Source of the DNA: Candidatus Binataceae bacterium | Lineage (GTDB): Bacteria > Desulfobacterota > Binatia > Binatales > Binataceae | Reading direction: 5' to 3' | DNA length: 64,000 bases | Assembly (NCBI GenBank): GCA_963789715.1 | Contig: CAWBLQ010000003.1 | Span: 523,916 to 587,915, forward strand | Part shown: positions 20,815 through 25,886 of the stretch, piece by piece | Numbering within the stretch: the first letter of the stretch is position 1 | Layout of the letters: every line of letters begins with the position of its first letter | Program-made: the position numbers and the translations under genes | Notes under the pieces: generated by a model | What the model was told of the DNA's origin: nothing | The model's database searches: none | Seen by the model: only the letters and a program-made list of their open reading frames with translations

Positions 20815-21105
20815 TCATGCAGCGGCGGTGCGCGGATGGATAGTTGTGACGCGAAGTCCCTTGGAGGTCCACCCAACGTCGAAGCCGACGATGTCGCCTT
20901 CGCGAATCAGGTCGATACCCGGCATCGTGCCGCCAATTCGCGCGCCGACGACGGTCACGAATGGAAACTCAAAGAAGATCTCCTTGCCGCTATGCGAGCG
21001 CACCACGCCGCGTCCGCGCGCGCGGTCGAGCTTGAGGATCATCCCCTGGTAAAAATTTCCGGGAAAGCGTTCGCTGTCGTATTCGTCTTCGTTATCGTTG
21101 GCCAC
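20815..21105 (-). CDS. Cold-shock-domain-like small protein with an acidic N-terminal extension
   Basis: GMILKLDRARGRGVVRS..GKEIFFEFPFV...LIREGDIVGFDVGWTSKGLRVTTI follows the CspA pattern G.I..f...GFGFI...g.diFfH..a....l.eG..V.F.v..g.kG..A.nV. Confidence 0.45.
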   Translation of the reverse strand: MANDNEDEYDSERFPGNFYQGMILKLDRARGRGVVRSHSGKEIFFEFPFVTVVGARIGGTMPGIDLIREGDIVGFDVGWTSKGLRVTTIHPRTAAA

Positions 21106-21164: not shown

Positions 21165-21812
21165 TCAGGTGCCCAGCTTGTAATCGATCACCTTGGTCAC
21201 TGATTCGACCAGCAGCTTTCCATTCCAGGTCTTCCTGGTTTCTTCCTTGACCAGGCCGCCGGGGACGTCATCCGACAACCAGTCTTTCGAGGTCGATAGC
21301 TCCGGGCCGGTCTTGACCGAGGTCTCGACCCAATGAGTCTTGATCTTGTTGCCCATCACCGTCACCTCCTCGTCGCCTTCAGTCTGCTTCACGACTTCCT
21401 GCTTCGGAGGCTTTTCCATCAGCGACTCGCTGGCGTTGCTGATTTCGCCGTTGGCAAAGAGCGTCACCTTGTCAGGCGGCATCTCGGTTTCGCTACCCTC
21501 GCCGAGATCGACCCTGGTTTCCTCGAGCACGGCCTTGTCCTGGTTGAAATCGACCAGCTTGGTGTTGATGCGCATGACCGCGGCGCCGGGCGGATGCGCC
21601 ATGGCTTCCACCACGCCGACATTGTTCTCGCGATGTTCAAAAACTTTTCGCTCGAGGGTGACATAGGTGCCGGGTTTGAAGTGAGACCATTGCTGGTATT
21701 CCGGGTTGGCCGGCTGCGGAGGATGCGAATCGTCAGCGGCCATAAGGAAGAGACTTGCGCCCAGCAGACTGGAACCCACGATTGCCGCGTAAAGTGTCGG
21801 GCGCAAGTTCAT
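21165..21812 (-). CDS. Secreted hypothetical protein (signal peptide)
   Basis: MNLRPTLYAAIVGSSLLGASLFLMAADD is an N-terminal signal peptide. No recognised motif. Confidence 0.5.
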   Translation of the reverse strand: MNLRPTLYAAIVGSSLLGASLFLMAADDSHPPQPANPEYQQWSHFKPGTYVTLERKVFEHRENNVGVVEAMAHPPGAAVMRINTKLVDFNQDKAVLEETRVDLGEGSETEMPPDKVTLFANGEISNASESLMEKPPKQEVVKQTEGDEEVTVMGNKIKTHWVETSVKTGPELSTSKDWLSDDVPGGLVKEETRKTWNGKLLVESVTKVIDYKLGT

Positions 21813-22044: not shown

Positions 22045-22383
22045 TTGCAGGAGGAACCGGTGGAATCCGACAAGCCCGCCATCCGGAACAAGCTTAAGGA
22101 ACGGCTTCGCGCGATCGTCGGCACGAGCGCCGGCACTATCGTGCTCGCGACCACGATACTGAGTGCGATTCCCGCCGACGCCAACGTTGCGGACAGCAAT
22201 CCGGCGGAGACTCTCCGCCAGCGCGTCGAGAAAGTCCGCCCGCAGGCCGAGGACGCGAACGCAAATCTGCAGCAGGGTGATTCGAAAATCCAGTTGGCGT
22301 GGTGGCGCAATTGGCGCAACGGCGGATGGCGCGGATGGGGTTGGCCGAACTGGCACAACTGGCGCAACTGGCGTAATTGGTAA
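22045..22383 (+). CDS. Candidate RiPP precursor or exported peptide. The C-terminal 28 residues, AWWRNWRNGGWRGWGWPNWHNWRNWRNW, carry a Trp at every third position
   Basis: The track start is TTG at 22045. An in-frame GTG at 22060 has AGGAGG 5 nt upstream and is the likelier start. After a KERLR n-region there is a hydrophobic stretch AIVGTSAGTIVLATTILSAIP and then ADA|NVA, which looks like a Sec signal peptidase site. The radical-SAM gene follows 61 bp downstream on the same strand. Confidence 0.55.
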   Translation: MQEEPVESDKPAIRNKLKERLRAIVGTSAGTIVLATTILSAIPADANVADSNPAETLRQRVEKVRPQAEDANANLQQGDSKIQLAWWRNWRNGGWRGWGWPNWHNWRNWRNW

Positions 22384-22444
22384 AATCTCAGGGGCGCGAT
22401 TCGCTGTGAGCCGGCGTGCGGCGCGGCCTCGAGCAATATTCAAG

Positions 22445-23608
22445 ATGGCTGCGGGCTATAGATGGCGAATCGCCGGGCCGCTCGAGCTTCTCGTCCTGCA
22501 GGCTACTCCGTTCTGCAATCTCGACTGCGCGTATTGCTATCTTCCGGACCGCGACTCGAAGCGCAGGATGTCCGACGCGACTCTGAATCGTGTCTTTCAA
22601 TTCGTCTTTTCAAGCGGAATCGTGGAGCGGGGCTTCACCGTGGTATGGCACGCGGGCGAGCCGATGGTCCTGCCGGTGGCCTATTACGAACGCGCGATTG
22701 AAATTGCGGCCGCGCATAACCCGGGGGGCGTGCAGGTTGGTCATTCGTTCCAGACCAACGGCGTGCTCATCGACGACGCCTGGTGCGATTTTTTCAAGCG
22801 CCGTCGCGTCAACGTCGGCGTGAGCGTTGACGGGCCGGCGTTTCTTCACGATCGCAATCGGAAAACGCGCAAGGGCGCCGCGACTCATCATCGAGTCATG
22901 CAAGGGATCCGAAAGCTGCAAAGCCGCAACGTGCCGTTTCACGTGATCTCCGTGCTCACCGCAGAGTCGCTCGACTACGCCGACGAACTGTACGATTTCT
23001 ACGTCGAGAACGAGCTCCGGGAGGTCGCGTTCAATATCGAGGAGATCGAAGGACCGCACGCCGCGTCGACGCTCGACGACGCGAGCATCGAGGATCGCTT
23101 TCGGCGCTTCATCGGCAGATTTTTCGACCTCGTCGCGCGCGACGAGTCGGCTATAAGTGTGCGCGAGTTCGACTCGATGGTGCCGATGATTCCTGGCAGC
23201 GACCGCGACGACATTGCGCTGATCCAGGAAAATGCGCCCGGCGCGATAGTCAGTATCGACTGCGAAGGCAACTTCACTTCATACTCGCCGGAACTGCTCG
23301 GCCTCAAGAGTAGTCATTACGGTGATTTTGCTATAGGCAATGTGAATACCGACACGCTCGCTTCGGCGATCAACGGCGAAAAGTTTCGCCGTATGAGTAG
23401 TGATATCGCGCACGGATTGAGTAAATGTCGCGCGACGTGTGAGTATTATAGTTTGTGCGGAGGCGGCGCGCCGGTGAATAAGTACTTTGAGAATGGCTCT
23501 TTCGATTCGACCGAGACCATGTTCTGCCGATTGAATCGCAAGGCGATCATCGATGTGATTGTCGCGAAGCTGCAACACCCGATGGGCGCGCCGACATCCG
23601 TCGCCTGA
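22445..23608 (+). CDS. Radical SAM / SPASM-domain peptide-modifying enzyme (anSME-like fold)
   Basis: QATPFCNLDCAYCYLP is the CxxxCxxC radical-SAM cluster. GEPMV matches the GGEP motif. The C-terminal CRATCEYYSLCGGGAP...FC is an SPASM auxiliary-cluster motif. Start at the ATG at 22445 (MAAGYRW). Confidence 0.85.
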   Translation: MAAGYRWRIAGPLELLVLQATPFCNLDCAYCYLPDRDSKRRMSDATLNRVFQFVFSSGIVERGFTVVWHAGEPMVLPVAYYERAIEIAAAHNPGGVQVGHSFQTNGVLIDDAWCDFFKRRRVNVGVSVDGPAFLHDRNRKTRKGAATHHRVMQGIRKLQSRNVPFHVISVLTAESLDYADELYDFYVENELREVAFNIEEIEGPHAASTLDDASIEDRFRRFIGRFFDLVARDESAISVREFDSMVPMIPGSDRDDIALIQENAPGAIVSIDCEGNFTSYSPELLGLKSSHYGDFAIGNVNTDTLASAINGEKFRRMSSDIAHGLSKCRATCEYYSLCGGGAPVNKYFENGSFDSTETMFCRLNRKAIIDVIVAKLQHPMGAPTSVA

Positions 23609-23629: not shown

Positions 23630-24235
23630 GTGAAGACATCGCCGGGTTGCCGAGTTTGCCACGCGGCGCGGTACCGCAGCCAGCTGACGATGGCTGATCG
23701 AGTGCAGGTGCTCGACTCGACCGGATGGCGGCGCGCCAGCGCGGACGAGATGGCGGCGGCATGCATCGACGAGCAAGGGCGGACGGCTGGCGATGTGTCG
23801 GTGATCGCGATACCCAAGCATTTGTTGAGGCGATGGTGGAGTCTGGCTGAGTCGGGCGACGGTGATCCGATCCATATAAAGCCGGGGTTTGAGAGCTACG
23901 CGCGCGAGATTGCCGAATATTTCAATTACAAGAGCTGGCCGTTGCCGACTGATGCCCTGATGGAGGTCGCGGTCTCCGACGATGCAACCGCGGCGCCGCA
24001 ACCTAGTCGCGCGACGCGGTTCAGCCGCGGAATCGGCACGCTGCTCGCGGTTATCAACCTCGGCGATGAGAACCTTAGGATCGTTCTGGGCGCGGAGTCC
24101 GCGCAGGTTCGCGTCATCCTCGAACCAGGCGAGGGCGTGATGCTGCCAGCTTGCGGCGTCCTCTGGAATCTTGCGACTCTTCGCGGATCAGATCTCGCGG
24201 TAACGATGCTGATTGGGCGGCTTTCGACTGACTAG
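23630..24235 (+). CDS. Hypothetical protein co-directional with and 22 nt downstream of the rSAM gene (possible cupin-like beta-barrel C-terminus)
   Basis: The C-terminal ..LGDENLRIVLGAESAQVRVILEPGEGVMLPACGVLWNL.. loosely resembles the cupin G(x)5PxG motif but has no His ligands. Start may be MADRVQ near 23690. Confidence 0.4.
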   Translation: MKTSPGCRVCHAARYRSQLTMADRVQVLDSTGWRRASADEMAAACIDEQGRTAGDVSVIAIPKHLLRRWWSLAESGDGDPIHIKPGFESYAREIAEYFNYKSWPLPTDALMEVAVSDDATAAPQPSRATRFSRGIGTLLAVINLGDENLRIVLGAESAQVRVILEPGEGVMLPACGVLWNLATLRGSDLAVTMLIGRLSTD

Positions 24236-24242
24236 TCAATCG

Positions 24243-24554
24243 CTACGGCATCGACATGCAGATTTGCAATTCGTTGACCGCGTTGTCGATGTATCCGATC
24301 GCGTTGGCCTTGTGCCCGTGATAGTCACTCGCGGCTTCGGCCTTCAGCACGTAGCGTGCGTGCTGTAGCTCGTTCAGCGCTTGTGAGATTGCAGGATGGC
24401 TGCCGGGCGGAGGTCCGGGAGGAGGACCGTAATAGCCAGTGCCTTCGGGCGGACCGTAAGGACCGCTGCTGTACGCCGGCCCCTGCGAGCACGCGGCGCA
24501 GGCTAGGAAAACCCCGAAGATAACGCCGCTGGCGAAACACAGTACTTTGACCAT
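24243..24554 (-). CDS. Small Gly/Pro/Tyr-rich lipoprotein
   Basis: MVKVLCFASGVIFGVFLACAAC is a signal peptide with lipobox. It is followed by GPYGPPEGTGYYGPPPGPPPG. Confidence 0.5.
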   Translation of the reverse strand: MVKVLCFASGVIFGVFLACAACSQGPAYSSGPYGPPEGTGYYGPPPGPPPGSHPAISQALNELQHARYVLKAEAASDYHGHKANAIGYIDNAVNELQICMSMP

Positions 24555-25097: not shown

Positions 25098-25886
25098 ATG
25101 TCCAAAGTTGAAAGCATTAATCCCGGGGAGCTCAACGGTGCGGCCGACAACGCCGAATCACTGGAACTCCGCGGCGAAGGCTTGGTTAAGGTTTACGGCG
25201 GGCGCGCGGTCGTCGACAACGTCAACGTGCTCGTCAAGCCGGGCGAGGTGGTGGGCTTCCTCGGTCCCAACGGCGCGGGCAAGACGACGACCTTCTACAT
25301 GCTGGTGGGACTGCTGAAGCCCGACCAGGGACGAATCATGTTCAGCGGCGAGGACATCACGACGCTGCCGCTGTACCAGCGCGCGCGCCGCGGGATTTCC
25401 TACCTGCCGCAAGAGCCGAGCGTCTTTCGCAAGCTGACGGTCGAGCAGAATCTGCTGGCGGTGCTCGAAACGCTGCCGCTCACCGAAGAGGAGCGCTACG
25501 CGCGCCTGCAATCGCTGCTCGACGAGCTCGGAATCGCGAAGCTGGCGAAGTCCAAGGCAGGGGTGCTGTCAGGCGGCGAGCGCCGGCGCGTGGAAATCAC
25601 GCGGGCGCTGGTGCTCGATCCGGTGTACCTGTGCCTTGACGAGCCGTTTGCGGGAATCGACCCGATCACCGTCGTCGAGATTCAGCGCGTCGTGTCGTAT
25701 CTCAAGGAGCGCGGCATCGGGGTGCTGATGTCGGATCACAACGTGCACGCGACGCTGTCGATCATCGATCGCGCCTATATCATTCACTCGGGCAAGATTT
25801 TGTTCGAAGGCAAACCGCGCGACATCGTCGCCAGCGAGGCAGTGCGCCAGGTGTTCCTGGGCGAGCGCTTCAAGCTGGCGAGATAG
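25098..25886 (+). CDS. lptB: LPS export ABC transporter ATP-binding protein LptB
   Basis: GPNGAGKTTTFYM (Walker A), LSGGERRRVEITRAL (signature), ...CLDEPFAGIDP (Walker B) and an LptB-typical C-terminus, about 240 aa. Confidence 0.85.
   Translation: MSKVESINPGELNGAADNAESLELRGEGLVKVYGGRAVVDNVNVLVKPGEVVGFLGPNGAGKTTTFYMLVGLLKPDQGRIMFSGEDITTLPLYQRARRGISYLPQEPSVFRKLTVEQNLLAVLETLPLTEEERYARLQSLLDELGIAKLAKSKAGVLSGGERRRVEITRALVLDPVYLCLDEPFAGIDPITVVEIQRVVSYLKERGIGVLMSDHNVHATLSIIDRAYIIHSGKILFEGKPRDIVASEAVRQVFLGERFKLAR

Follow-up and report, generated by a model that had tools for sequence, protein, structure and literature searches.

What is made by a pair of genes in which a short peptide, ending in repeated Trp-x-Asn (W-x-N) motifs, is followed on the same strand by a radical S-adenosylmethionine (rSAM) enzyme? 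Such a pair lies in the 64,000-nucleotide stretch of Candidatus Binataceae bacterium DNA (contig CAWBLQ010000003.1) that we analysed and call here the window. A first-pass annotation, made from the sequence, had taken it for a candidate new RiPP system (RiPPs are peptides that are made by the ribosome and modified after translation), with a core from no named family, and had proposed that the enzyme forms three-residue cyclophanes on the repeated W-x-N. Our results make it probable that the pair belongs to a RiPP locus of the GrrM/OscB family whose product is a triceptide (three-residue cyclophane); the genome resembles those of Candidatus Binatus, a genus of the phylum Binatota. The proposed kind of enzyme is supported by its match to the GrrM/OscB model, by the chemistry of OscB and by the pairing of peptide and enzyme in most of the loci that we compared. 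The claim of a new RiPP system found no such support, because the enzyme belongs to GrrM/OscB, the name that NCBI gives to its close homologues, and W-x-N is already the documented motif of that family. GrrM was among the families against which the first-pass annotation had itself suggested testing the enzyme. The features on which this answer is built are the following (positions in the window).

22060 to 22383, forward strand: GrrA-like triceptide precursor, 107 aa from the GTG at 22060 (112 aa if started at the TTG at 22045)
22049 to 22054, forward strand: Shine-Dalgarno-like AGGAGG, read directly in the sequence, 5 nt 5' of the GTG at 22060
22297 to 22380, forward strand: core AWWRNWRNGGWRGWGWPNWHNWRNWRNW, with six W-x-N at residues 82, 85, 95, 98, 101 and 104 of the 107-aa peptide
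22445 to 23608, forward strand: GrrM/OscB-family radical SAM peptide maturase, 387 aa, with an ATG start 61 nt after the peptide stop
22514 to 22537, forward strand: CX3CX2C cluster motif CNLDCAYC (C24, C28, C31), its three Cys invariant in 12 diverse homologues
23426 to 23467, forward strand: auxiliary-cluster motif CRATCEYYSLCGGG (C328, C332, C338), which together with C361 (FCRL) makes a partial SPASM

The enzyme is a clear member of the GrrM/OscB family. Its 387 residues matched 58 NCBIfam families, and among the best 25 of these, for which cutoffs were compared, TIGR04261 (GrrM/OscB) was the sole family above its own cutoff, with 482.7 bits against 310 and profile positions 1-362 of 363 aligned. 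Homologues from Candidatus Binatus, 85-88% identical to the enzyme, carry the NCBI name GrrM/OscB, and the Pfam Radical_SAM model PF04055 scores 60.7 bits. The coordinates, strand and 61-bp spacing first given for this gene were right. A longer open reading frame (ORF), 22163-23608 from a GTG, was discarded as the rSAM gene because the homologues have 387-391 aa and an invariant Met1. The characterised member of the family, OscB (IPR026357), makes C-C crosslinks between residues i and i+2, which join Trp-C7 to Asn/Asp-Cβ or Phe-C4 to Asn-Cβ (Nguyen et al. 2020, summarised in PMC11002830). These crosslinks form when OscB is co-expressed with its precursor in E. coli, and W-x-N is a documented substrate motif (PMC11002830).

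One might argue that the enzyme is instead an anaerobic sulfatase-maturating enzyme (anSME) or a quinoprotein-type maturase with its target elsewhere, and that the Trp-rich ORF beside it has nothing to do with it. Among solved structures, anSME and ChlB are indeed the nearest, with anSME closest by sequence (4k36/4k37, E = 2.5e-26), and an anSME model gave the third-best NCBIfam match. Yet all three anSME models remained below their cutoffs (TIGR03942, 195.7 against 349.45 bits; NF010308, 137.7 against 484; NF010321, 118.2 against 441), and so did the QhpD model (83.9 against 453), which excludes orthology to a sulfatase or quinoprotein maturase. In addition, the genes that we examined from 18.6 to 28.3 kb include no sulfatase, as the first-pass annotation had reported when it judged an anSME role unlikely, and the adjacency of peptide and enzyme recurs in 74 of 80 loci from many phyla. 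This effectively refutes the sulfatase-type explanation, to which we give next to no chance. The other maturase models were also under their cutoffs: AmcB (309.6 against 425 bits), DynA (168.7 against 450), YhhB (159.4 against 445), FxsB (126.3 against 370), DarE (115.3 against 650) and XyeB (98.7 against 450). Membership in the anSME, QhpD, DarE, XyeB and FxsB families was rejected on these scores.

The CxxxCxxC cluster noted at first is CNLDCAYC and fits the assignment of the enzyme to GrrM/OscB. The C-terminal SPASM motif was correctly seen in so far as the auxiliary-cluster cysteines are present, with C328, C332, C338 and C361 all invariant among the 12 diverse homologues, but it is only a partial SPASM: the Pfam model stays sub-threshold (17.8 bits against 21.5) and the upstream cysteines of auxiliary cluster I are absent. 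In a profile alignment with anSME (4k36/4k37), C328, C332 and C338 match the motif CKKCKWFRLCKGGC, whose fourth Cys is Ala in the window enzyme, and the four C-terminal cysteines align with the ligands of auxiliary cluster II. We infer from this alignment that the enzyme holds a single auxiliary cluster. The reduced SPASM appears to be typical of this group of enzymes and not a failure of membership, because ChlB (9gm3) has the same reduced pattern of auxiliary cysteines. More generally, the label SPASM is only partly apt for GrrM-type enzymes, which keep four C-terminal cysteines and lack the ligands of auxiliary cluster I. The enzyme has no N-terminal RiPP recognition element (RRE), for which there is no room because the cluster motif begins at residue 24.

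The precursor gene is real and conserved. Among 5.8 billion proteins searched, 33 homologues came up that retain the core; any name they have is "hypothetical protein", and Candidatus Binatus sp. is the source of one of them. The homologues and their conserved core rule out a spurious ORF. The GTG at 22060 is the likely true start, because AGGAGG precedes it and most of the database homologues begin with V/MESDKP in the alignment. The peptide then has 107 aa and not the 112 aa first proposed. Its last 28 residues, AWWRNWRNGGWRGWGWPNWHNWRNWRNW, include 10 Trp and 6 Asn, and all six Asn stand two positions after a Trp (W+2), in WRN four times, in WPN and in WHN; the six WxN fall within the final 26 residues. 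WRG and WGW occur as well, and the whole list of triplets given by the first-pass annotation can be found in the translation of ORF 22045-22383. Its description of a Trp at every third residue holds for two in-phase runs, but GG and WRGWGW break them, and the longest contiguous run of WxN has four units. The expectation of six or seven crosslinks can likewise be narrowed to six predicted crosslinks, at the canonical WxN sites, because WRG and WGW have no Asn or Asp acceptor.

This arrangement of residues is unlike chance and is conserved. Six WxN were reached by 77 of 200,000 shuffles of the same 28 core residues, and elsewhere in the window, in all six frames, no stretch of 28 aa has as many as three. 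The core, QLAW..WRNGGW..WRGWGWPNWxNWxNWxNW, is kept in aligned homologues whose leader identity is only 35-44%. Within the close Binatus clade its variation is confined to the x positions, between R, H and G, and the WRGWGW segment, in spite of having no Asn acceptor, is strictly conserved among homologues. Selection acts on the W and N of the core. The window peptide had no match to any Pfam or NCBIfam model.

The pairing of such peptides with this enzyme extends far beyond the window. An alignment of 12 diverse homologues of the enzyme, used to scan one genome per species, gave 561 relatives, and we fetched and compared 80 of the 561 loci. In 74 of these, from more than 10 phyla, a same-strand ORF just upstream of the enzyme has 4-15 aromatic-x-Asn/Asp motifs near its C-terminus, and hence the peptide gene is conserved beside the rSAM orthologues. 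Six loci showed no such ORF, and in two of these (L011 and L012) the sequence upstream of the enzyme gene is just 264 and 68 bases long. The precursors have cores of two styles. Gly-rich cores with GGFRN-type repeats are found in Cyanobacteria, many Alphaproteobacteria and Gemmataceae, whereas Trp-dense WxNWxN cores occur in 37 precursors from Binatia, Isosphaeraceae, Myxococcota, Acidobacteriota, Verrucomicrobiota, Eremiobacterota and Alphaproteobacteria. In these 37, W+2 is Asn in 257 cases and Asp in 14 (together 271 of 341), W+1 is free (R, G, N, H or P) and the next Trp mostly stands at W+3. Contiguous runs reach 10 WxN units in three Acidobacteriota loci, and the window peptide is a mid-range member of this widespread class. 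Gly makes up 7-13% in the Trp-dense style, against 25-48% in the Gly-rich one, and about 8-13% of the last 60 residues in the close Binatus orthologues. The two styles also differ in their match to the curated GrrA/OscA1 model, TIGR04260 (cutoff 31 bits): a cyanobacterial precursor (L044) scored 131.2 bits and an alphaproteobacterial one (L024) 42.4 bits, whereas the three Trp-dense precursors scanned (the window peptide, L042 and L072) had no match at E <= 10.

Some loci encode more than one precursor. Two tandem precursor ORFs lie within about 600 bp upstream of a single maturase in L044, L047, L050, L053, L063, L067, L069, L071, L072, L074, L078 and L080. The cyanobacterial cases pair a mixed W/F core with an F-only core, and L067, L072 and L078 pair a W-dense core with one of GGWRN type. 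The verrucomicrobial precursors (L019:1530-2015 and L020:3314-3793) mix WxN with WxD and end in a His/Lys-rich, Asp-terminated tail, HHKHHKHHHNDDD, that was not seen elsewhere.

If the core is where the enzyme acts, the remainder of the precursor may tell how the enzyme recognizes it and where the product goes. Two segments of the leader are relevant here.

22060 to 22182, forward strand: signal-peptide-like N-terminus, residues 1-41, with a K/R-rich n-region, the hydrophobic stretch IVGTSAGTIVLATTILSAIP and A-D-A before Asn42
22207 to 22251, forward strand: conserved leader segment ETLRQRVEKVRPQAE, with the family pattern (E/Q)R(V/L)xx(V/I)R, 3' of the hydrophobic segment

The second segment is a candidate recognition element for the maturase. 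Its residue R60 (numbered in the 112-aa version) is nearly invariant, the motif persists in homologues at 35-44% identity, and akin RLxxI/L motifs are present in precursors from other phyla. As for the first, a hydrophobic N-terminal segment preceded by basic residues was found in all 86 candidate precursors from the compared loci, so the product of the window locus is probably exported. A clear twin-arginine motif of the RRxFLK type occurs in 22 of the 86. In the window precursor this motif is degenerate (IRNKLKERLR), and its N-terminal segment, KERLRAIVGTSAGTIVLATTILSAIPADA, has RN where the sister clade has RR; there were also weak matches to a TAT-signal model. Textbook twin-arginine motifs (TRRSLLRTL, RRRFLKG, HRRQFLKE) can be read in precursors of L013, L017, L018, L021-L029, L031-L035, L040 and L046. 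The motifs of these many GrrA-like precursors suggest export of crosslinked peptides by the twin-arginine translocation (Tat) pathway. We found no gene for a protease or a dedicated transporter near the locus, and the synteny of an ABC ATPase at 25098 is limited to the genus.

Two further genes accompany the pair in many of the compared genomes.

23630 to 24235, forward strand: MicC homologue with a double-stranded β-helix fold, 201 aa, starting 22 nt after the rSAM stop
21165 to 21812, reverse strand: secreted protein (215 aa, N-terminal signal peptide) whose half-barrel fold is LolA/LppX/LprG-like, divergent from the precursor gene

The first had no Pfam or NCBIfam match, but its family profile matches one solved structure, MicC (9vkm, E = 6.4e-7), and a Myxococcota member of the family matches MicC at E = 1.2e-6 over a span that includes the HxD region. 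A homologue lies directly downstream of the rSAM gene in 37 of the 80 loci, with cores of both styles (L001-L010, L012-L035, L040, L041 and L070). In the minviopeptin triceptide cluster, MicC serves as the α-ketoglutarate/Fe oxygenase that cuts the N-Cα bond of a Gly and leaves a C-terminal amide, and its association is described mainly in Actinomycetota and Bacteroidota (PMC12912966). Each of its residues H160, D162 and H253 (the iron-binding triad), R188 and K266 is essential (PMC12912966).

This homology raises the possibility that the MicC-like protein is an active tailoring enzyme which, for example, cleaves oxidatively at Gly (in GG or WRG), to give a shorter, amidated and further modified product. 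The position of the gene right after the rSAM gene in so many loci would suit such a role, as would the similarity to MicC itself (E about 1e-6), the conserved GG and G of the core, and the fact that MicC cleaves at a Gly following a cyclophane (PMC12912966). However, none of the 28 MicC-like members that we aligned with the MicC fragment retains the equivalents of H160, D162, H253, R188 or K266, whereas in MicC the mutation to Ala of any triad residue, of R188 or of K266 abolishes activity (PMC12912966). In the Binatus proteins the whole HxD segment is deleted and a Trp takes the position of H253. The MicC-like protein also diverges much faster than the rSAM enzyme, with 50-64% against about 85% identity in the same genomes. 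Since all five essential residues are lost, ORF 23630-24235 cannot be a canonical Fe/α-ketoglutarate enzyme. An active oxygenase role was rejected on the loss of the triad and of the α-ketoglutarate-binding Arg and Lys in all 28 members, and we hold any tailoring activity to be improbable. To judge from these alignments, the MicC-like protein is probably a non-catalytic accessory that handles the substrate; it resembles a pseudo-oxygenase attached to a triceptide maturase.

The LolA-like protein has homologues in 20 of the 80 loci (L001-L010, L013-L018, L022, L027, L034 and L035). It has no family assignment, and its gene is kept beside the precursor gene across Binatia, Planctomycetota and Myxococcota. 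The protein may be a periplasmic partner or carrier of the product. Neither the MicC-like nor the LolA-like gene was detected in the cyanobacterial loci among the 80. Hence cyclophane formation does not require the MicC-like protein.

Our preferred reading, a triceptide locus of the GrrM/OscB family, leads to the following proposal. The precursor starts with a signal-peptide-like N-terminus, continues with a conserved leader segment and carries its six W-x-N in a core at the C-terminus. Reductive cleavage of SAM by the rSAM enzyme would yield a 5'-deoxyadenosyl radical, which would take a hydrogen from each Asn at its Cβ. The carbon radical left behind would attack the indole of the Trp two residues upstream (at C7 in OscB), after which the indole ring would re-aromatise and the electron would return via the auxiliary cluster. 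The predicted product has six adjacent, non-overlapping Trp-x-Asn cyclophanes, each with a loss of 2 Da, or 12 Da in total. Modification would take place first, in the cytoplasm, and would be followed by export through Sec, or through Tat as in the relatives with RRxFLK. Signal peptidase would then cleave, probably after Ala-Asp-Ala. The MicC-like and LolA-like proteins would assist in this process without adding any chemistry.

Several points weigh against this reading, or against parts of it. We found in the literature no mass spectrometry (MS) or nuclear magnetic resonance (NMR) data for the window peptide or for any Trp-dense precursor without spacers, and the formation of rings on immediately adjacent WxN units is a prediction. 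OscB was characterised on Gly-rich precursors, according to the title of a 2024 paper (ACS Chem Biol 2024, 19:1229). The precursor does not match the curated GrrA/OscA1 model. The indole carbon that is used could differ from that of OscB, because the enzyme is only 45-48% identical to its cyanobacterial relatives among the 80 loci. The export route of the window peptide is uncertain, because its twin-arginine motif is degenerate, with RN instead of RR. Finally, the structure model of ORF 23630-24235, built from a shallow alignment of database homologues only, has moderate confidence (predicted local distance difference test, pLDDT, 64).

Some of these points could also be read as signs that the enzyme, although of the same family, performs a different chemistry. 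It might use another indole carbon (C6 as XncB, or C5 as WprB), make an ether or C-N link as DarE and DynA do, or act also on WRG and WGW; in each case the product would be something other than a simple six-fold C7-Cβ triceptide. The regiochemistry of related rSAM enzymes does vary: XncB crosslinks Trp via C6 (PMC11002830), OscB uses C7, and WprB joins C5 to Arg-Cγ. The DynA and DarE models are detectable relatives of the window enzyme, the identity to cyanobacterial members is low, and WRGWGW is strictly conserved in spite of its missing acceptor. On the other hand, the GrrM/OscB cutoff was passed by a wide margin, whereas DarE, DynA and XyeB were far below theirs, and the selected feature of the core is Asn at W+2, as in the OscB motif, and not the W-x-W of daropeptides. 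We consider a different chemistry unlikely, and keep the C7-Cβ triceptide as the expected product of the locus.

Other elements around the locus add little to this picture. At 24243-24554, on the reverse strand, lies a gene for a small secreted protein of 103 aa with many Pro, Gly and Tyr residues (GPYGPPEGTGYYGPPPGPPPG); it matched no family and is conserved in Binatia alone (L001-L009). An ORF of 96 aa at 20815-21105, also on the reverse strand, gave 20.8 bits with the retron Se72 effector model, far below the cutoff of 82, and is conserved only within the genus; it is probably unrelated to the RiPP locus. The 61-nt spacer between the peptide and rSAM genes shows no attenuator hairpin, its fold being no more stable than those of shuffles (z = 0.48). 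A scan for promoters and terminators gave nothing above chance, and the Rfam and tRNA scans found a distant tRNA-Arg only.

What is new here is an unannotated type of precursor, dense in Trp, and two uncharacterised companion genes, whereas the enzyme family is already known. The locus adds nothing to the classes of RiPP enzymes: the description of this family, with its motif and chemistry, dates from 2020, and the enzyme already receives its name from current annotation pipelines. The Trp-dense precursors themselves may already be catalogued in the primary triceptide papers (Nguyen 2020 Nat Chem; Sugiyama 2022 JACS). They are common in soil phyla and are yet labelled "hypothetical protein", which matters for annotation and genome mining. 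With up to ten contiguous WxN, they offer a test of how close together a three-residue cyclophane synthase can set its staples. The conserved, iron-less MicC homologue offers a concrete candidate for the role of non-catalytic partner to a maturase without an RRE, and the signal and Tat peptides, together with the LolA-like neighbour, suggest products that are exported to the envelope or periplasm. To our knowledge, no biological function has been assigned so far to triceptides of the GrrM/OscB type.

These observations can be joined into a more ambitious picture, which we put forward tentatively, since we doubt that all of its parts will hold together. The Trp-dense GrrA-like precursors would form a distinct and widespread triceptide sub-architecture, present in Binatota, Acidobacteriota, Planctomycetota, Verrucomicrobiota, Myxococcota, Eremiobacterota and Alphaproteobacteria. 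Their product would be a peptide of about 65 aa carrying a rigid "ladder" of 6-10 abutting Trp-Asn cyclophanes, exported by Sec or Tat and not released by a dedicated protease or transporter. The dead MicC-like protein would serve as substrate chaperone for the RRE-less maturase, and the periplasmic LolA/LppX-like protein would receive the hydrophobic product. If this were true, the product would be an exported, protein-like component of the envelope and not a small diffusible antibiotic.

How does the locus compare with the systems already described? Darobactin, dynobactin and streptide are also made by rSAM/SPASM enzymes (DarE, DynA and StrB) that crosslink Trp side chains in ribosomal peptides, but these act on other motifs (W-N-W-S-K-S-F, K-x-x-W) with other chemistry (ether and C-C bonds, Lys-Trp links), and the window enzyme is not of their family. 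XyeB/XncB, FxsB, YhhB and ChlB are closer in kind, since they share the anSME-like rSAM scaffold, the reduced SPASM and the logic of joining an aromatic residue to a Cβ between i and i+2. ChlB, a solved triceptide synthase, even has the same CxxC(x5)CGGG(S/A) pattern as the window enzyme. Yet the latter is under the cutoffs of XyeB, FxsB and YhhB, whose group has different motifs and acceptors (Arg, Lys, Ser, Asp, Ala). The minviopeptin cluster (mic, with the rSAM enzyme MicB and MicC, PDB 9VKM) resembles the window locus in that a triceptide rSAM gene is accompanied by a β-helix protein of the MicC family, but MicC is an active oxygenase with H160, D162 and H253, all of which the window protein has lost, and the window locus has no ADP-ribosyltransferase. 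The closest counterparts are OscA/OscB and GRRM (GrrA/GrrM; TIGR04260, TIGR04261), the triceptides of Cyanobacteria with Gly-rich repeats. The window locus departs from them by its host, a member of Binatota and not of Cyanobacteria, by its MicC-like and LolA-like genes, not detected in the cyanobacterial loci, and by its Trp-dense core, in which WxN stand back to back without Gly spacers and which TIGR04260 misses. It shares with them an enzyme above the TIGR04261 cutoff, a same-strand precursor gene immediately upstream, repeats of the aromatic-x-Asn motif, and the same precursor design, with a hydrophobic N-terminus, an RLxxI/L leader motif and a C-terminal repeat core.

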